DNA of 9,456 nt, from the IMG/VR virus record IMGVR_UViG_2534681624_000015; one strand, written 5' to 3'. Origin of the DNA: a virus (lineage: Duplodnaviria > Heunggongvirae > Uroviricota > Caudoviricetes). Of this stretch, positions 1-8,907 are shown piece after piece (position 1 is the first letter of the stretch; each line of letters opens with the position of its first letter). Below the pieces are notes generated by a model. The model was not told where the DNA came from, ran no database searches, and worked only from the letters and a program-made list of their open reading frames with translations. Position numbers and translations under genes: made by a program.

Positions 1-525
1 TTATACAGCTTTTTTTACATCGTCTTCTCTTGCCGGGAGGTTGTGTTCCTTATTTTCATACTGAGATAAAATCTCTCTCGCTTTTTCCGGCGGTAATGCT
101 TGAAGTGTCTGTAGGGTTCTTTGTTGTTCTACAGTAACCCCCAATGCTTCTAACGCTTTATCTTTGCTAACAATTGTCGGCATAAGACCTTTAATTCCTG
201 CCACACGAATGATCTCAATAGCCGCAGCTTGCTCATCAGGCGTTAAGAAACTCATTGCATAAACTAGCCGCTCATCAACTGTATGATGGCTTGGTACATG
301 TACTGGAGGGGTATCAGAAAATGATGCTCCCTTAATAGCCCTTTGGGTTTCTTCTGGTAAGCTGTTGATGTGATATTCATAAGCCACACCTTTTCCACCA
401 TGACGTTGACGTTTTACCCAATCTTCTGCCACAGCCTTTCTGGTAATGTTAGTCGCCAACTTTGGCACACCAGGCATCCCCTCCAGCTCTTTCGCATTAA
501 ACCATTCTTTGATTTCAAAAGACAT
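1..525 (-). CDS. c: Mu/D108-family immunity repressor (Repc), 174 aa
   Basis: Complete minus-strand ORF with stop at 1-3 and ATG at 523-525. C-terminus ...DDVKKAV resembles the Mu repressor C-terminal tail. N-terminal ~60 aa are paralogous to the N-terminus of the downstream transposase ([19 protein letters not shown]...WV.RQ...KGV), the known repressor/transposase DNA-binding domain relationship. Divergent from ner-A-B as in Mu. The 174-aa size fits a D108-type repressor (recalled, not searched). Confidence 0.85.
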   Translation of the reverse strand: MSFEIKEWFNAKELEGMPGVPKLATNITRKAVAEDWVKRQRHGGKGVAYEYHINSLPEETQRAIKGASFSDTPPVHVPSHHTVDERLVYAMSFLTPDEQAAAIEIIRVAGIKGLMPTIVSKDKALEALGVTVEQQRTLQTLQALPPEKAREILSQYENKEHNLPAREDDVKKAV

Positions 526-619
526 TGTTTAAAATCCCAATGATTTCATTAAAGTTGAAAAAATCACTTTAAATTTCAAATAATTAATCAAGATGCTGTA
601 AAATCTTTTCAAATCATCA

Positions 620-648
620 TTGATTCCAAAAAGATTTCACTGTACATT
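620..648 (+). promoter_or_regulatory. Candidate early promoter Pe (-35 TTGATT 620-625, 17-bp spacer, -10 TACATT 643-648)
   Basis: Sigma70-like hexamers with 17-bp spacing reading toward ner; the predicted start (~655) sits just before the Ner operator palindrome. Pattern match by eye only. Confidence 0.4.
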
Positions 649-658
649 GCTCGATATG

Positions 659-688
659 CCGTGAGCTACTTTGCAGAGTAGCTCACGG
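659..688. promoter_or_regulatory. Ner operator: perfect inverted repeat CCGTGAGCTAC(T)-spacer-(A)GTAGCTCACGG
   Basis: Directly seen: 11-bp arms at 659-669 and 678-688 are exact reverse complements with an 8-bp spacer (12-bp arms with 6-bp spacer if the flanking T/A pair is included). It lies about 25 bp upstream of the ner start. It matches my recollection of the D108 Ner binding site (two 11-bp inverted repeats separated by 8 bp). Confidence 0.6.
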
Positions 689-712
689 GTGAATCTGAAA
701 GGATTACATGAA

Positions 713-934
713 ATGCATATGAATAAAAGAGCTAACCGCCAAGACTGGCATCGGGCTGACATCGTTGCTGAGTTACGAAAACGCAATATGTCACTGGCCG
801 AATTGGGAAGATCGAATCATCTTTCGTCTTCAACATTAAAAAATGCTTTAGATAAGAGATACCCAAAAGCGGAAAAAATCATTGCAGATGCATTGGGAAT
901 GACACCGCAGGATATCTGGCCATCTCGATACTAG
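713..934 (+). CDS. ner: Ner, small DNA-binding negative regulator of early/repressor transcription (73 aa)
   Basis: ORF frame 671..934. I prefer ATG at 713 (RBS AAAGGA at 698-703, 9-nt spacing; second ATG at 719) over the TTG at 671, which lies inside the operator palindrome. Product [33 protein letters not shown]...IWPSRY shows the Ner-family pattern (DWHRAD..., ...IWPSRY C-terminus). Sits immediately upstream of A as in Mu/D108. Confidence 0.85.
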
Positions 935-941
935 GTGCGCT

Positions 942-2930
942 ATGAAAGAGTGGTATACAGCGAAGGAATTGCTTGGTTTTGCTGGTTTGCCAAAGCAAGC
1001 AACTAACATTACACGTAAGGCACAAAGAGAAGGCTGGGTGTTTAGGCAAGTTACAGGTACTAAAGGTGTATCATTTGAATTCAATATCAAATCATTTCCT
1101 GTTGCATTACGTGCTGAAATTTTATTGCAACAAGGAGGTATTGAAACAAGCCAGGGCCGTTTTGAAATCGCCCGCCCCACGCTGGAAGCCCATGATTATG
1201 ATCGTGAGGCACTGTGGAGCAAATGGGATAATGCCAGCGATTCCCAGCGCAGACTTGCTGAAAAATGGTTGCCTGCGGTTCAGGCTGCAGACGAAATGCT
1301 GAACCAGGGGATTTCAACGAAAACGGCATTTGCGACCGTTGCAGGACATTACCAGGTCAGCGCATCCACTTTGCGAGACAAATATTACCAGGTACAGAAG
1401 TTTGCGAAGCCTGACTGGGCGGCTGCGCTTGTTGATGGACGTGGTGCATCCCGTCGCAACGTTCACAAAAGTGAATTTGACGAGGATGCCTGGCAGTTTC
1501 TGATTGCAGATTATCTGCGACCAGAAAAACCCGCCTTCCGCAAATGTTATGAGCGTCTGGAACTGGCAGCCCGCGAGCATGGCTGGAGTATTCCCTCCCG
1601 TGCCACGGCCTTTCGCCGGATTCAGCAACTGGACGAGGCAATGGTTGTTGCCTGCCGTGAAGGTGAACATGCACTGATGCATCTGATACCGGCACAACAG
1701 CGAACTGTGGAACACCTGGACGCCATGCAGTGGATCAACGGCGACGGTTATCTGCATAACGTCTTTGTACGCTGGTTTAACGGTGATGTGATCCGCCCGA
1801 AAACATGGTTCTGGCAGGATGTGAAAACCCGAAAAATTCTGGGCTGGCGCTGCGATGTGAGCGAGAACATTGATTCAATTCGCCTCTCGTTCATGGATGT
1901 TGTGACTCGCTACGGTATCCCGGAGGATTTTCACATCACCATTGATAACACCCGTGGTGCTGCGAATAAATGGCTGACGGGAGGCGCGCCCAATCGCTAC
2001 CGCTTTAAGGTAAAAGAGGACGATCCAAAGGGACTGTTTTTACTGATGGGCGCGAAAATGCACTGGACAAGCGTTGTTGCCGGTAAAGGCTGGGGCCAGG
2101 CAAAACCTGTTGAACGTGCTTTCGGTGTTGGTGGGCTTGAGGAATACGTTGATAAGCATCCGGCACTGGCTGGCGCATATACGGGGCCAAATCCTCAGGC
2201 AAAACCTGATAACTATGGCGACCGCGCTGTTGATGCAGAGCTGTTTCTGAAAACCCTTGCCGAAGGTGTGGCGATGTTCAATGCCAGAACAGGCCGTGAA
2301 ACAGAAATGTGCGGGGGCAAACTCTCGTTTGATGATGTTTTCGAGCGTGAATACGCCAGAACGATTGTGCGTAAGCCAACCGAAGAACAAAAACGGATGC
2401 TGTTACTGCCTGCCGAGGCGGTGAACGTTTCACGCAAAGGCGAGTTTACGCTTAAAGTTGGCGGCTCCCTTAAAGGCGCGAAAAACGTTTATTACAACAT
2501 GGCATTAATGAATGCCGGCGTGAAAAAAGTTGTGGTCAGGTTTGATCCGCAGCAGCTACACAGCACGGTTTATTGTTACACCCTGGACGGTCGGTTTATC
2601 TGTGAAGCGGAATGTCTGGCACCTGTTGCGTTTAATGATGCTGCGGCAGGCCGTGAATATCGCCGCCGCCAGAAACAACTGAAATCTGCGACGAAAGCAG
2701 CGATTAAGGCACAGAAACAAATGGATGCACTGGAAGTGGCAGAGCTGCTGCCGCAGATAGCCGAACCTGAAGCACCAGAATCACGAATTGTCGGCATTTT
2801 CCGGCCTTCCGGTAATACGGAACGGGTGAAGAATCAGGAGCGTGATGATGAATACGAAACTGAGCGTGATGAATATCTGAATCATTCGCTGGATATTCTG
2901 GAACAGAACAGACGTAAAAAAGCCATTTAA
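942..2930 (+). CDS. A: Mu-type DDE transposase MuA (662 aa)
   Basis: Long ORF starting 7 bp after the ner stop. Catalytic DDE triad at D268 (WINGDGY), D335 (HITIDNT) and E391 (KPVERAF), matching Mu D269/D336/E392 with a one-residue offset. C-terminus ...[10 protein letters not shown] is the MuA tail recognised by ClpX. The N-terminal domain is paralogous to the repressor N-terminus. Confidence 0.95.
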
Positions 2931-2968: not shown

Positions 2969-3907
2969 ATGAATATTTCCGATATTCGCGCAGGACTGCG
3001 CACGCTTGTAGAAAATGAAGAAACCACCTTTAAACAAATTGCTCTTGAGAGCGGACTTTCTACCGGAACTATCAGTAGTTTTATCAATGATAAGTACAAC
3101 GGGGATAACGAGCGTGTTTCACAAATGCTGCAACGCTGGCTGGAAAAATATCATGCAGTTGCAGAACTACCTGAACCGCCCCGCTTTGTGGAAACGCAGA
3201 CGGTAAAACAAATCTGGACAAGTATGCGTTTTGCCAGCCTGACTGAAAGTATTGCTGTTGTATGTGGCAATCCTGGTGTGGGCAAAACCGAAGCGGCCCG
3301 TGAATATCGCCGCACCAATAACAATGTCTGGATGATCACCATTACGCCATCCTGTGCCAGCGTTCTGGAATGCCTGACTGAACTGGCGTTTGAGCTGGGA
3401 ATGAATGACGCACCACGCCGTAAAGGGCCACTCTCCCGTGCCCTGCGACGTCGCCTTGAAGGTACACAGGGGCTGGTTATCATCGACGAAGCTGATCATC
3501 TTGGTGCCGAAGTTCTGGAAGAACTCCGCCTGTTACAGGAATCAACCCGCACTGGCCTTGTGCTGATGGGAAATCACCGGGTTTATTCAAATATGACGGG
3601 AGGTAACAGAACGGTTGAATTTGCCCGTCTGTTTTCCCGTATTGCAAAGCGTACTGCAATTAATAAAACCAAAAAAGCCGATGTAAAAGCTATTGCGGAT
3701 GCCTGGCAGATTAACGGCGAAAAAGAACTGGAGTTATTACAGCAGATTGCGCAGAAACCAGGTGCGCTTCGCATTCTGAATCATTCACTTCGCCTTGCCG
3801 CCATGACGGCTCACGGTAAAGGTGAGCGTGTTAACGAAGATTATCTGCGTCAGGCTTTCCGTGAATTAGACCTGGACGTTGATATTTCAACGCTGCTGCG
3901 TAATTAA
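2969..3907 (+). CDS. B: MuB, AAA+ ATPase target-DNA activator of transposition (312 aa)
   Basis: 312-aa ORF directly after A with RBS ACGAGG 8 nt upstream. Walker A GNPGVGKT and Walker B LVIIDEADHL are present. Length and position match Mu B. Confidence 0.95.
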   Translation: MNISDIRAGLRTLVENEETTFKQIALESGLSTGTISSFINDKYNGDNERVSQMLQRWLEKYHAVAELPEPPRFVETQTVKQIWTSMRFASLTESIAVVCGNPGVGKTEAAREYRRTNNNVWMITITPSCASVLECLTELAFELGMNDAPRRKGPLSRALRRRLEGTQGLVIIDEADHLGAEVLEELRLLQESTRTGLVLMGNHRVYSNMTGGNRTVEFARLFSRIAKRTAINKTKKADVKAIADAWQINGEKELELLQQIAQKPGALRILNHSLRLAAMTAHGKGERVNEDYLRQAFRELDLDVDISTLLRN

Positions 3908-5925: not shown

Positions 5926-6023
5926 TACCACCATTAATATTTAATTAATTCACATTCTTTTAATTATGGCGCGATGCGTCAGGGGATTGCTCGCGCCTGA
6001 AACAGATTACTGAGGAATAAAAC

Positions 6024-6563
6024 ATGGTTGATGCAAAAATTCTGAATGGTGTCAGCATATTATTACGGGCTTACGGGCGCCTGACCTGCGGAGTTCTGGC
6101 TGAAAAAATGAATATGCTGCCCTCGTCAATGGTGTATTTCCTGCGTGATGCGGTTGATGCCGGAGTGCTCACCGAATGCAACGGATTTTATGACGTACCG
6201 CGTCCCCGTACAGAGCCGCCTGTAAGACGAAACGCAACTGAGCAGCCTGCTGTTGATGATGCGGTGTGGTGCAACTGGCGTCGCTCATTACCCTGGGTGG
6301 AAGGTAATACCATCCCTGCGCTGGCAAAAGAGTTTGCGACAGGCGTACTGACCTGTGAGTCAGTTCACATCGTTGCAGAAGTGGATGACGAGATGTGCAA
6401 ACAGGGAATGCCCCGTTTTGTGATGGCTTATATCGATATCTGGCTGGGGCGGTTTATTTGCAGTTCAGGCGCCTGGAATATCACCGACCATGTACTGCGT
6501 TATCTCATCATTGATTTTTCATCAGCACCGGGTGTGGTGCAGGAGGCTGGTTGTGAAATTTGA
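6024..6563 (+). CDS. Hypothetical early protein, N-terminal winged-helix-like segment (179 aa)
   Basis: RBS GAGGA 7 nt upstream of ATG. N-terminal LLRAYGRLTCGVLAEKMNMLPSSMVYFLRDAVDAGVLT resembles a wHTH recognition unit. Its stop overlaps the start of the next gene. Confidence 0.7.
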   Translation: MVDAKILNGVSILLRAYGRLTCGVLAEKMNMLPSSMVYFLRDAVDAGVLTECNGFYDVPRPRTEPPVRRNATEQPAVDDAVWCNWRRSLPWVEGNTIPALAKEFATGVLTCESVHIVAEVDDEMCKQGMPRFVMAYIDIWLGRFICSSGAWNITDHVLRYLIIDFSSAPGVVQEAGCEI

Positions 6564-7248
6564 AGACTGGGGTATTGATAAAAGTTGTGGCCGGGACGTC
6601 CTGGTGTACAAAAACTGTAGCGTGATTGAAGGAGAAGATGCCTGGCAGGTTCTGGATATACTTCGTTCTGCTTTATGCAGAGCTGGCTATGTTACGCCAG
6701 CGTCAGTTAATGGCGGAACTGCCACTACCTGTATCAGAAAGCAACTTTATAGTTTTTATACAGCCTACAACCAATGGTTAAAGAATGGGGCAATGGAGAC
6801 GGGCGATGATGTATTTATCCGGGCTGCCGGATTATGTGCCAATGCTTACGATTATTTTGAATCAACCGGTGCAGACAGTGAAGCCGCATTAGAACAATTA
6901 CATGCGGACTTTATCTCAGCAGGGCTGAATGCGATATTGCCATTTAACCGGGAGAGCGAACATTACATAAACGAAAGCAAATTAGCCAGATGCCACCTTA
7001 ATTCAGCACGTGTGGCATGGGTTGAAAAACACTGTATTAGTTCTGATTCAGAAATAACGGGGAAAAAGACAGTCGGTGAAACATCGTATTCGTGGCCGGG
7101 GACATTTACCACGGTGAAACAGGAATGCCCGACCTGCGGGAATGAATCCCCTGAATATCTGAAAGAGTGCCCTCATTGTGGCGGGCAGAAATGCAACCAC
7201 TGCGATATGGGCGATGACACGGCGTGCATGAATTGTGAAGGTGAGTGA
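6553..7248 (+). CDS. Hypothetical early protein with C-terminal 8-Cys double zinc-ribbon-like motif (231 aa from GTG 6553)
   Basis: ORF frame 6490..7248. I prefer GTG at 6553 because a canonical AGGAGG (6541-6546) sits 6 nt upstream and it overlaps the upstream stop by 11 nt (translational coupling); the ATG at 6490 has no RBS and would overlap 74 nt. C-terminus CPTCG-x11-CPHCG-x4-CNHC-x7-CMNC. Confidence 0.7.
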   Translation: MKFEDWGIDKSCGRDVLVYKNCSVIEGEDAWQVLDILRSALCRAGYVTPASVNGGTATTCIRKQLYSFYTAYNQWLKNGAMETGDDVFIRAAGLCANAYDYFESTGADSEAALEQLHADFISAGLNAILPFNRESEHYINESKLARCHLNSARVAWVEKHCISSDSEITGKKTVGETSYSWPGTFTTVKQECPTCGNESPEYLKECPHCGGQKCNHCDMGDDTACMNCEGE

Positions 7249-7249
7249 T

Positions 7250-7561
7250 ATGAATAATGGTGTATTTTCAAAATCAGAAGAGCTTGCCGCCCTGCTGATT
7301 GCCGGTGGTTTGCCGAAAAAAGAAGTGCATGACTTTGTGAGTTTTGTATATGAGTCGTCTCATGAAAAAGCTATTGATGAAGTCATGGCGTACCGGTTTG
7401 GCATTATTGCTGAGTCACTGAGTCCTCACTGGATTATTGAAAATCTCCGCACTATTGCTGATGGTAACAATAAAGTGGCGGCTGTCGCCGCCCTTGATGC
7501 GCTGCAACGTATGAACAGGGAACTATTCAATCCCGAGTTTCTTTTTAAGAAACGAGGTTAA
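7250..7561 (+). CDS. Hypothetical early protein (103 aa from ATG 7250; GTG 7235 alternative)
   Basis: ATG at 7250 follows the upstream stop (TGAtATG) with GGTGA 6 nt upstream. No motif recognised. Its 3' end overlaps the 3' end of a convergent minus-strand ORF by 39 bp. Confidence 0.65.
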   Translation: MNNGVFSKSEELAALLIAGGLPKKEVHDFVSFVYESSHEKAIDEVMAYRFGIIAESLSPHWIIENLRTIADGNNKVAAVAALDALQRMNRELFNPEFLFKKRG

Positions 7562-7939
7562 CCACTGTTTGCCGACGTCTGTTACGAGCGTCATCGGGGC
7601 GTCGGCAAGGTCCTGTTTTATGCGCTCAAGAATGGGTTTTTGATGTAGTGCTTTCGCAAAATCATGACCATCTTGTGTAAGTCTGACACTGGTGCCTGAA
7701 TATGAATATCCGAGGCTTGTTGGGGTGAGACCAATGCTTTTTGCGGTGCCTGTTTCCAGATATCTGTTGCTGATAAAACCATTTTCAACCAGCAACAGAA
7801 GATGGAAAACCAGCTTCTGATGGCTGTCGCTGTGCCGCTGAGAACAATCCCAGCCGACATCTTCCAGTCGAATGAATGCGGTGTCGGCCTCCAGAAAAAC
7901 ATCAAATATTCTGGCTATCTCGTCATAATCAATTTTCAT
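7523..7939 (-). CDS. Reverse-oriented hypothetical protein (138 aa), possible small winged-helix-like phage accessory protein
   Basis: Only ORF of 60 aa or more covering 7562-7801 on either strand apart from a shorter minus-strand ORF in another frame. Minus-strand ATG at 7937-7939 preceded by AAGGA at ~7-nt spacing; non-repetitive, balanced composition. Segments KLVFHLLLLVENGFI and RLTQDGHDF and the C-terminal KKKLG recall a small phage-associated domain family of unknown function (DUF2513-like, from memory, unverified). Confidence 0.55.
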   Translation of the reverse strand: MKIDYDEIARIFDVFLEADTAFIRLEDVGWDCSQRHSDSHQKLVFHLLLLVENGFISNRYLETGTAKSIGLTPTSLGYSYSGTSVRLTQDGHDFAKALHQKPILERIKQDLADAPMTLVTDVGKQWLTSFLKKKLGIE

Positions 7940-7969
7940 ATCTCATTCCTTAATATGAGAGGTGAGCAA

Positions 7970-8521
7970 ATGAATCGCACATCCCTGATTAAATTAATCC
8001 ATGTCGCCCGTCGGGAGCTACAACTCGACGACGACACTTACCGCGCTTTTCTGATGCAGAAAACGGGCAAAACCAGTTGCCGCGAGCTGACGGTCACGCA
8101 ACTGGAACAGGTGCTCGATGCCATGAAAGAACGCGGCTTTAAGAAGCTGAATAAACATCCACGTCGCCGCTTTAAGGGGTATGCCACTCCCCGCGAGAAG
8201 GTATACAAAGTCTGGCAGCAGATGGCAGAAGACGGTTTTATTACCGATGGCGGTGATGTGGCGCTGGATAAATATGTTCAGCGCCTGACAGCGAAACGCA
8301 ACGGCGGACAGGGTGTTTCCACACTGGCGTGGTGCCACGGAGAATCGTTGCAGGTTGTGCTTGAAACCCTGAAACAGTGGCACATCCGCTGTATTCGTGA
8401 AGCCTTTTCCCGTCACGGGCTTCCATTGCCGGTCAGTCCGTCCGGGCGTGAACTGCGCGGCTATGATGCCATGACGGCGGCTTATGCCCATGCCAGAAAG
8501 ACGCGGAGGATGGCACAATGA
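7970..8521 (+). CDS. gemA: GemA, early gene-expression modulation protein (183 aa)
   Basis: ATG at 7970 with GAGGTGA 7 nt upstream gives 183 aa, the size I recall for Mu GemA. N-terminus MNRTSLIKLIHVARRELQLDDDTYRAF... The stop overlaps the mor start (ATGA), as expected for the gemA-mor pair. Confidence 0.8.
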   Translation: MNRTSLIKLIHVARRELQLDDDTYRAFLMQKTGKTSCRELTVTQLEQVLDAMKERGFKKLNKHPRRRFKGYATPREKVYKVWQQMAEDGFITDGGDVALDKYVQRLTAKRNGGQGVSTLAWCHGESLQVVLETLKQWHIRCIREAFSRHGLPLPVSPSGRELRGYDAMTAAYAHARKTRRMAQ

Positions 8522-8907
8522 CGGAAGATTTATTTGGTGATTTGCAGGATGACACCATTCTGGCACATCTTGACAATCCCGCAGAGGATACGTCACGCTT
8601 TCCGGCACTGCTGGCGGAGCTGAACGATTTACTGCGCGGGGAATTGTCCCGGCTGGGTGTTGATCCTGCCCATTCACTGGAGATTGTTGTGGCTATCTGT
8701 AAGCATCTGGGCGGCGGCCAGGTCTACATTCCACGCGGTCAGGTTCTGGACTCGCTGATTCGGGATTTGCGTATCTGGAATGATTTTAACGGTCGCAACG
8801 TCAGCGAACTGACCACCCGTTATGGTGTCACTTTCAATACGGTTTACAAGGCCATTCGCCGGATGCGACGGCTGAAATACCGCCAGTACCAGCCCTCACT
8901 TCTGTAA
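8518..8907 (+). CDS. mor: Mor, activator of the middle promoter (129 aa)
   Basis: 129-aa ORF, the known length of Mu Mor, coupled to gemA via ATGA overlap. C-terminal HTH-like segment VSELTTRYGVTFNTVYKAIRR. Last gene before a strong intrinsic terminator, as in the Mu early operon. Confidence 0.9.
   Translation: MTEDLFGDLQDDTILAHLDNPAEDTSRFPALLAELNDLLRGELSRLGVDPAHSLEIVVAICKHLGGGQVYIPRGQVLDSLIRDLRIWNDFNGRNVSELTTRYGVTFNTVYKAIRRMRRLKYRQYQPSLL

Follow-up and report, generated by a model that had tools for sequence, protein, structure and literature searches.

The predicted operator–enhancer region between c and ner of an SfMu-type Muvirus is built like those of phages Mu and D108

The window, the whole 9,456-nucleotide stretch of a Caudoviricetes virus that was analysed (IMG/VR record IMGVR_UViG_2534681624_000015), shared 99.5% identity over positions 1–1000 with Shigella phage SfMu (KP010268) and 85.6% with phage D108 (GQ357916). 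Window position 1 corresponded to position 326 of SfMu. By these identities, the window comes from an SfMu-like Muvirus and covers its left end. SfMu has the same type of control region, and its c protein was 100% identical to that of the window. The two sequences differed in a run of A at 558–563 (8 A in SfMu, 6 A in the window) and at position 565 (T in SfMu, C in the window), and they diverged beyond about position 6000. The published description of SfMu contains no operator or promoter analysis; neither word occurs in the paper.

The c repressor (174 aa) was encoded on the minus strand at 1–525 and ner (73 aa) on the plus strand at 713–934, followed on the plus strand by the genes for transposase A (942–2930) and transposase B (2969–3907). 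The repressor matched the Pfam family HTH_Tnp_Mu_1 (E = 1e-44) and Ner matched HTH_35 (E = 1e-28), in agreement with the first-pass annotation of this DNA, which had read the region as a c–ner control region. Positions 526–712 were exactly the c–ner intergenic region (187 bp), with a G+C content of 24.6% in the AT-rich part at 526–655. The gene order of the Mu/D108-type switch was present, with c divergent from ner across a short AT-rich gap and A and B beyond. The shared domain of that switch was present as well: the N-termini of c and transposase A were homologous (60% identical over 53 aa, E = 2e-21), and the stretch ATNITRKA was common to both. The DNA-binding domain of c was encoded at the gene end adjoining the control region. 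HTH_Tnp_Mu_1 and DDE_2 were among the Pfam domains of the transposase A gene region, and the N-terminal DNA-binding domain of transposase A was assigned to 942–1150 (plus strand) by the Pfam match and homology with c; we infer its enhancer-binding function from this homology.

Control regions of this type were found in 45 of 5,426 complete E. coli genomes, five of the SfMu type (at least 99% identity) and 40 of the D108 type (84–85%). A scan of viral contigs for c returned solely relatives with 90–100% identity, and there were no relatives of c in the genome contig collection scanned. Conservation was assessed in an alignment of 17 distinct variants from SfMu, D108, Mu_3F6, eleven IMG/VR contigs and nine E. 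coli prophages. Three more distant comparators were used beside it: Mannheimia phage vB_MhM_3927AP2 (KP137440) and Escherichia phage PhiR68_1, both found by tblastn with c, and phage Mu (AF083977).

Identity to D108 differed between segments, with 83% at 526–548, 51% at 549–600, 79% at 601–642, 93% at 643–712 and 92–93.5% in ner and A. Invariant across the 17 variants were AAAATCC (531–537), TGATTTCA (541–548), AAA (601–603) with the following T (604), CAAATC (610–615), ATTGATT (619–625), GATT (633–636), TACATTGC (643–650), the left arm of the palindrome assigned to Ner below, and positions 690–708. C 605 differed in one variant. Variation was seen in the outer parts of the 9-bp repeat described below (606–609, 626–632), between the arms of both the inner and the Ner palindrome, and across almost all of 549–600.

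The word GATTT, or AAATC on the opposite strand, occurred seven times in 500–655, compared with 1.9 times in shuffles (P < 0.001, which is post hoc since the word was picked after looking at the sequence). This corresponded to 45 copies per kb, compared with 4 per kb in the whole window. GATTT was found at 511, 542 and 633 and AAATC at 532, 561, 601 and 611; GATTC at 622 is a related variant outside the count of seven. The word columns were invariant at 26 of 30 positions, compared with 39 of 87 other columns in 526–642 (Fisher P = 8e-5, likewise post hoc). There are other reasons for which some of the words may be conserved: 511–515 is coding, 532–536 overlaps the ribosome-binding site of c and 622–625 is part of a −35 hexamer. 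The word at 561–565 was no longer present in SfMu, where position 565 is T instead of C, and it was therefore left out of the operator model.

By enrichment and invariance, two word blocks were delimited. The O1-like block (511–548) consisted of GATTT at 511–515, inside the first codons of c, AAATC at 532–536 and GATTT at 542–546. The latter two formed a dyad, AAATC-N5-GATTT, whose words were invariant in the 17 variants and whose spacer varied. Positions 535–538 are also the likely ribosome-binding site of c (GGGA, minus strand). The O2-like block (601–637) consisted of two leftward words, AAATC at 601–605 and 611–615, and two rightward words, GATTC at 622–626 and GATTT at 633–637, spaced 10–11 bp apart. 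It enclosed an outer 9-bp inverted repeat and an inner palindrome (AATCA 612–616, TCAT 617–620, TGATT 621–625). The inner palindrome formed the core dyad AAATCA-TCAT-TGATT (611–625), with 9 of 10 arm positions invariant around a variable loop. The pattern AAATCA-N4-TGATT had a P-value of 0.0024 in shuffles of 496–712 and occurred only here in the 9.4-kb window, and the looser pattern AAATC-N5/6-GATTY occurred in the whole window at 532 and 611 only. An overlap of the inner palindrome with the −35 hexamer of the candidate early promoter Pe had been proposed; it was confirmed, with TTGATT at 620–625 as the best −35 hexamer and the dyad conserved. By its conservation, the inner palindrome is the real core of the predicted operator.

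All four motifs claimed in the first-pass annotation were recovered by sequence read-out and a repeat scan, but two of the three inverted repeats did not behave as conserved dyads. The outer 9-bp inverted repeat was perfect (AAATCTTTT at 601–609, AAAAGATTT at 629–637) and could be extended to 21 nt at 76%. In 2000 dinucleotide-preserving shuffles (loop at most 40), a perfect repeat of at least 9 bp appeared in 8% of the shuffles of 526–712 and 12% of those of 526–655, so the repeat alone is within chance. Inverted repeats of 6 bp numbered seven, with 3.2 expected (P = 0.04). In the arms of the 9-bp repeat, no more than 8 of 18 positions were invariant, and the D108-type changes break pairs, none of them being compensatory. 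The repeat was present but neither significant (P about 0.1) nor conserved outside its AAATC and GATT cores. All that is real in it is the two GATTT words at its flanks, and by the alignment the GATTT/AAATC words and the AAATCA-N4-TGATT dyad, rather than the 9-bp repeat, are the conserved units. The third repeat, TTGAAA (555–560) and TTTCAA (574–579) separated by 13 nt, was likewise present in the window, but the D108 type lacks it. In relatives with at least 99% identity, the spacer of this repeat measured 13, 14 or 15 nt because the A-run at 558–563 varies in length (6, 7 or 8 A), and its right arm, TTTCAA, coincides with the core of an IHF-like site.

The word blocks were separated by a variable AT-rich spacer (549–600), 51% identical to D108 compared with 79–93% in the flanks. 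The spacer contained the IHF-like core TTTCAAATAATTA at 574–586 (plus strand), which deviated from WATCAANNNNTTR by a single base (T instead of A at position 2) and was conserved in position. In all SfMu-type variants, TTTCAAATAATTA lay at −81 to −69 relative to the predicted early start. All 12 D108-type variants carried AATCATnnnnTTA at −81 to −69, with variation confined to N positions; in L017, a 1-nt insertion shifted the D108-type core by 1 nt. The perfect IHF site of Mu (947–959, start at 1028) occupied the same position, −81 to −69, on the same strand. Matches with one mismatch are frequent in AT-rich DNA (4 in 220 bp), and a second such core, AATCAAGATGCTG, was found at 586–598; the weight for an IHF site thus lies in the positional coincidence. 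The word clusters at 511–546 and 601–637 flank the IHF-like core upstream of Pe. A Fur box at AAATCATCATTGATT was also considered and rejected, with about 9 of 19 matches in a by-eye alignment to the 19-bp consensus.

With a simple −35/−10 matrix, Pe was predicted at 620–648 on the plus strand (−35 TTGATT 620–625, 17 nt, −10 TACATT 643–648), with a start at about 655. Its score of 9.1 was the best on either strand in 470–790. Applied to Mu, this matrix gave a Pe start of 1028, where the annotated promoter feature ends. Both hexamers were invariant in the 17 variants, and the predicted start preceded the ner ATG by 58 nt in the window, by 58–60 nt when D108, PhiR68_1 and the Mannheimia phage were included, and by 71 nt in Mu. 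The predicted sigma-70 promoter is overlapped by the O2-like dyad and reads into ner. A stricter consensus scan missed Pe and reported two sites, TTGAAA/18/AATAAT (555–584) and TTCAAA/18/TAAAAT (575–604). Both were rejected as promoters, since they lay in the non-conserved spacer and occurred at chance frequency (2 found, 1.6 expected).

The strongest palindrome in 526–712 was located at 659–688, with CCGTGAGCTAC (659–669) and GTAGCTCACGG (678–688) as 11-bp arms and TTTGCAGA as an 8-bp spacer (670–677). It was perfect over 12 bp (659–670/677–688), and a palindrome of at least 11 bp had a P-value of 0.0055 in shuffles. The arms were the same in D108, whereas the spacer differed; 21 of 22 arm positions were invariant in the alignment, the exception being one base of the right arm in one variant. 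The Ner proteins of the window and D108 differed in 1 of 73 residues. PhiR68_1, with a diverged Ner, had TCAGCTAC-N8-GTAGCTGA at the equivalent place (AGCTAC-N8-GTAGCT). The D108 ner operator, a pair of perfect 11-bp inverted repeats 8 bp apart directly after the Pe start, fits 659–688, and its two repeats correspond to 659–669 and 678–688. By palindrome and conservation, 659–688 is the predicted Ner operator, at about +4 to +33 of the predicted early transcript. A Ner operator had been invoked earlier without coordinates. A possible third Ner half-site, GAGCTA at 729–734, is GAACTA in D108 and, not being conserved, was treated as chance. A terminator at 659–688 was rejected, as no T-run follows the palindrome and a terminator scan reported no such site.

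The window and D108 had the same gene order and gene lengths, and the DNA-binding stretch of c was nearly identical, with about 90% identity over the whole c protein. The Ner-operator arms, the Pe hexamers, the AAATCA-N4-TGATT dyad and the other word cores were identical. The IHF-like core was equally far from Pe in D108, but its sequence was AATCATGCTGTTA rather than TTTCAAATAATTA, and the spacer at 549–600 (51% identical) was effectively replaced. Unlike D108, the window had a second IHF-like core 12 bp to the right; D108 had an extra AAATC word left of O2 that the window did not. The word blocks and the IHF-like core presumably match the published D108 operators and IHF footprint. Window positions convert to D108 coordinates by adding 336 on the left side of the variable spacer at 549–600 and 337 on its right side.

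In Mu, the logic was the same, although there was no detectable DNA similarity to the window in this region and the c proteins were only 28% identical. In Mu, too, one kind of N-terminal DNA-binding domain is common to repressor and transposase. The IHF site at −81 to −69 of Pe lies between two word blocks, as in the window, and the O2 block at the promoter carries two words in each direction, with CTTTT in place of GATTT. A Ner dyad follows just after the Pe start in both phages (CTAAGT-N6-ACTTAG in Mu, the 11-bp repeat with an 8-bp spacer in the window).

The Mannheimia phage was absent among the blastn matches to window 430–800. The N-terminus of its repressor was 57% identical to that of the window, and it shared a 12-residue stretch with the window transposase. 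The C-terminal part of the repressor was longer, unrelated to that of c and LexA/S24-like by eye. Eight GATTT words (P < 0.0005) were counted in the control region of this phage, along with two AAATCA-N4-TGATT dyads (P = 0.0002, shuffles). One dyad lay over its own TTGATT −35 hexamer, where the 17-mer AAATCACTATTGATTTA was identical to D108. Its Pe was predicted to start 60 nt before ner, with a perfect IHF core upstream and a different palindrome, TACGCT-AA-AGCGTA, downstream. PhiR68_1 had a c protein 41% identical to that of the window. The phages with an ATNITRKA-type recognition stretch (window, D108 and Mannheimia phage) had seven to eight GATTT words. PhiR68_1 (ASSISRKA) had one GATTT and four TATTC words, of which two formed an inverted pair around the −35 hexamer of this phage, and Mu (AGVHYRA) had no GATTT and seven CTTTT words. 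The DNA word thus switched with the recognition stretch of repressor and transposase, which is the best evidence that GATTT is the word read by the N-terminal domain of c and A.

We consider it likely that 526–712 serves an SfMu/D108-type transposable phage as its lysis–lysogeny switch and transposition enhancer, with the same construction as the corresponding regions of Mu and D108. The features of the sequence, the way in which they are conserved and the homologies between the proteins lead us to propose the following pairing of proteins with elements, transcript starts and enhancer role. The GATTT words would be read by the c repressor and, judging by homology, also by the N-terminal domain of transposase A. 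The words form two helically phased blocks, O1-like (511–546) and O2-like (601–637), with the IHF-like core (574–586) between them. Since the O2-like block covers the −35 hexamer of Pe, bound repressor would shut off transcription of ner, A and B. Ner made from the early transcript would bind 659–688 just past the start and damp early transcription; it would also damp repressor transcription, depending on the location of the leftward promoter. Roles for the operator/enhancer, the IHF site, Pe and PcM have been described in Mu (PMC3820752). The classical basis in Mu and D108 for an operator that doubles as a transposition enhancer is the shared N-terminal domain (PMC3820752, citing Mizuuchi 1986). 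With the same domain shared by c and A here, operator and enhancer would coincide, and an operator–enhancer role common to repressor and transposase would follow by homology with Mu and D108. The region is a known kind of system, an ordinary repressor/Ner control region of the SfMu type.

A convincing leftward promoter for the repressor (Pc) was not found: the best minus-strand candidate able to serve c scored 4.7 in the matrix, lower than the best scores of random coding pieces, which averaged 6.7. The first-pass annotation had named TGTAAT (minus strand, 703–708; ATTACA on the plus strand) as a good −10 hexamer that could serve Pc. TGTAAT was invariant in the 17 variants. It proved a poor −10 hexamer, with G at the near-invariant A position (−11), no −35 hexamer at any spacing and scores of −2.9 to −7.0. 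Its score at the best spacer, −2.9, compares with 9.1 for Pe and 4.2 for the leftward promoter-like site in the second promoter feature of Mu (1063–1101). TGTAAT sits between the ner ribosome-binding site (AAGGA, 699–703) and the ATG at 713, and its invariance is explained by this location in the ner translation-start region and by the high identity of 643–934 (92–93%). Since TGTAAT is not a good −10 hexamer, a face-to-face arrangement of Pe and Pc draws on the Mu analogy only, where we take the second annotated promoter feature (1063–1101) to be Pc, leftward and face to face with Pe. Read literally, the annotation makes the nested palindromes and TTGAAA-N13-TTTCAA binding dyads and has Pc start near 696 from TGTAAT, converging on Pe across the Ner operator. 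All its motifs exist and ATTACA is invariant; in addition, the second promoter feature of Mu lies just before ner and contains ATTACA (1073–1078), and PhiR68_1 has ATTGCA at the homologous place. We nevertheless regard this arrangement as unlikely, given a 9-bp repeat with P of 0.08–0.12, 8 of 18 positions invariant and no compensatory change, a TTGAAA/TTTCAA repeat absent from the D108 type and spaced 13–15 nt in the SfMu type, and a −10 hexamer with G at −11 and no −35 partner whose conservation is otherwise explained. In another arrangement, which we find somewhat more plausible though still doubtful, Pc would stand back to back with Pe. A weak leftward candidate at 639–668 (minus strand; −35 TAGCTC 668–663, 18 nt, −10 TACAGT 644–639, start at about 632; score 3.8) has its −35 hexamer in the left Ner-operator arm and its −10 hexamer overlapping that of Pe. 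With overlapping −10 hexamers, RNA polymerase could occupy only one promoter at a time, and Ner would block Pc at its −35 hexamer and Pe just past its start. A leftward candidate of the same geometry ranked first in PhiR68_1 (CTGACA/16/TAGTGT preceded by a TG, 8.9), in the Mannheimia phage (TTGATT/15/TATAAT, 8.9), where it is annotated as a promoter in the record, and in Mu (5.9). The promoters at the D108 ner operator are described as divergent and overlapping, which also favours it. Against it, the candidate is weak in the window, ranks below the listed candidates in D108 and would start inside the O2-like block, and both the textbook model and the record of Mu put the second promoter further right. 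A wider version, in which Pc of the D108/SfMu type is back to back with Pe as in PhiR68_1 and the Pasteurellaceae phage, and the SfMu type has in addition been retuned by its replaced O1–O2 spacer, by a degenerate IHF core with a second one 12 bp off and by an A-run that shifts phasing, is conceivable but improbable.

The region downstream of the Pe start may also be read at the RNA level. A small inverted repeat, GAATC (691–695) and GATTA (702–706), lies within 689–709 on the plus strand and is invariant in all variants; it could fold in RNA as a hairpin that covers the ner ribosome-binding site, or else serve as a third, weak pair of words. The RNA fold of 655–730 had −27.1 kcal/mol (z = −5.8) and two hairpins, the second covering AAGGA at 699–703, which is consistent with the palindrome at 659–688 and the repeat at 689–709 acting additionally or mainly as 5′ RNA hairpins that stabilise the transcript or mask the ner ribosome-binding site. 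However, every DNA palindrome folds once transcribed, the arms never vary and so offer no covariation evidence, and Rfam gave no match in the whole window. Sequence-conserved arms with a varying spacer fit a protein site, and we think a main or additional RNA role quite unlikely. Even less credible, to the point of being very improbable, is that all palindromes other than the Ner operator are products of chance in a spacer of 25% G+C, and that the promoter hexamers and the Ner site alone matter. Short inverted repeats are indeed expected in such DNA (3.2–3.8 of at least 6 bp per shuffle, one of 9 bp in about 10%), and the promoter-like sites of the consensus scan were at chance level (2 found, 1.6 expected). 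Chance accounts poorly for a GATTT enrichment (P < 0.001) that recurs in D108 and the Mannheimia phage and for a word that switches with the recognition stretch, or for the retention of AAATCA-N4-TGATT across phages that have no other detectable similarity in the region.

The importance of reading 526–712 as a predicted switch and transposition enhancer of the Mu/D108 kind lies mostly in annotation, since the region can now be labelled with confidence as the one for immunity and early control in an SfMu-type Muvirus. Coordinates are given here for Pe and the Ner operator, for the words that repressor and transposase probably read and for the IHF-like site; the published SfMu description lacks them. 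The correspondence between recognition stretch and DNA word (ATNITRKA with GATTT, ASSISRKA with TATTC, AGVHYRA with CTTTT) could help to predict the immunity groups of Mu-like prophages from sequence.

In the c-ner control region, a homopolymeric A-run of variable length (window 558–563) separates the O1-like block from the IHF-like core. In the alignment, it comprised six residues in the window and in L004, seven in L005 (both close relatives in the alignment) and eight in SfMu, these relatives being at least 99% identical. The distance between the two blocks of operator words therefore changes by at most 2 bp. An inverted repeat further downstream, GAATC (691–695) and GATTA (702–706), lying within window 689–709, showed no variation in any aligned variant. 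In the early transcript, this repeat would fold into an RNA hairpin that covers the ner ribosome-binding site; alternatively, it could act as a weak third pair of repressor words.

In the D108 record (L002, 861–864), the annotated start of c is an ATG that precedes by one codon the counterpart of the window's start codon, giving the N-terminus MMSFEIKE versus MSFEIKE in the window. For ner, the NCBI annotation of some E. coli prophages begins at the second in-frame ATG (216 instead of 222 nt).

The semi-essential early region (window 6000–8520) was mosaic, with only about 60% of it matched in any phage record. The best phage match was Yersinia phage vB_YpM_5/6 (95%), and SfMu covered 59% at 94% identity. 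The mor-like gene (window 8518–8907) was located approximately 730 bp earlier in the window than in SfMu. The end of a Gp11-like ORF (6024–6563) was shared, in a different frame, with a 252-aa ORF (6490–7248; phrog_6418, unknown function), which encoded CxxC pairs in a Cys-rich C-terminus and had a weak, below-cutoff match to the DnaJ zinc-finger domain. A 138-aa ORF on the minus strand (7523–7939; phrog_585, unknown function) was oriented against the rightward early operon and had no match in a Pfam search; it may be a moron-type insertion.

Two more distant phages differed in their repressors. Escherichia phage PhiR68_1 (L025, PV340575) exemplifies a third immunity type of Muvirus: its c protein was 41% identical, its words were TATTC/GAATA and its Ner site was TCAGCTAC-N8-GTAGCTGA. 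The repressor of Mannheimia phage vB_MhM_3927AP2 (L026, KP137440) combined the ATNITRKA-type DNA-binding domain that the window also encodes with a longer, unrelated C-terminal part, which by eye looked LexA/S24-like. Despite this unrelated C-terminal part, the Mannheimia phage retained the GATTT operator words.
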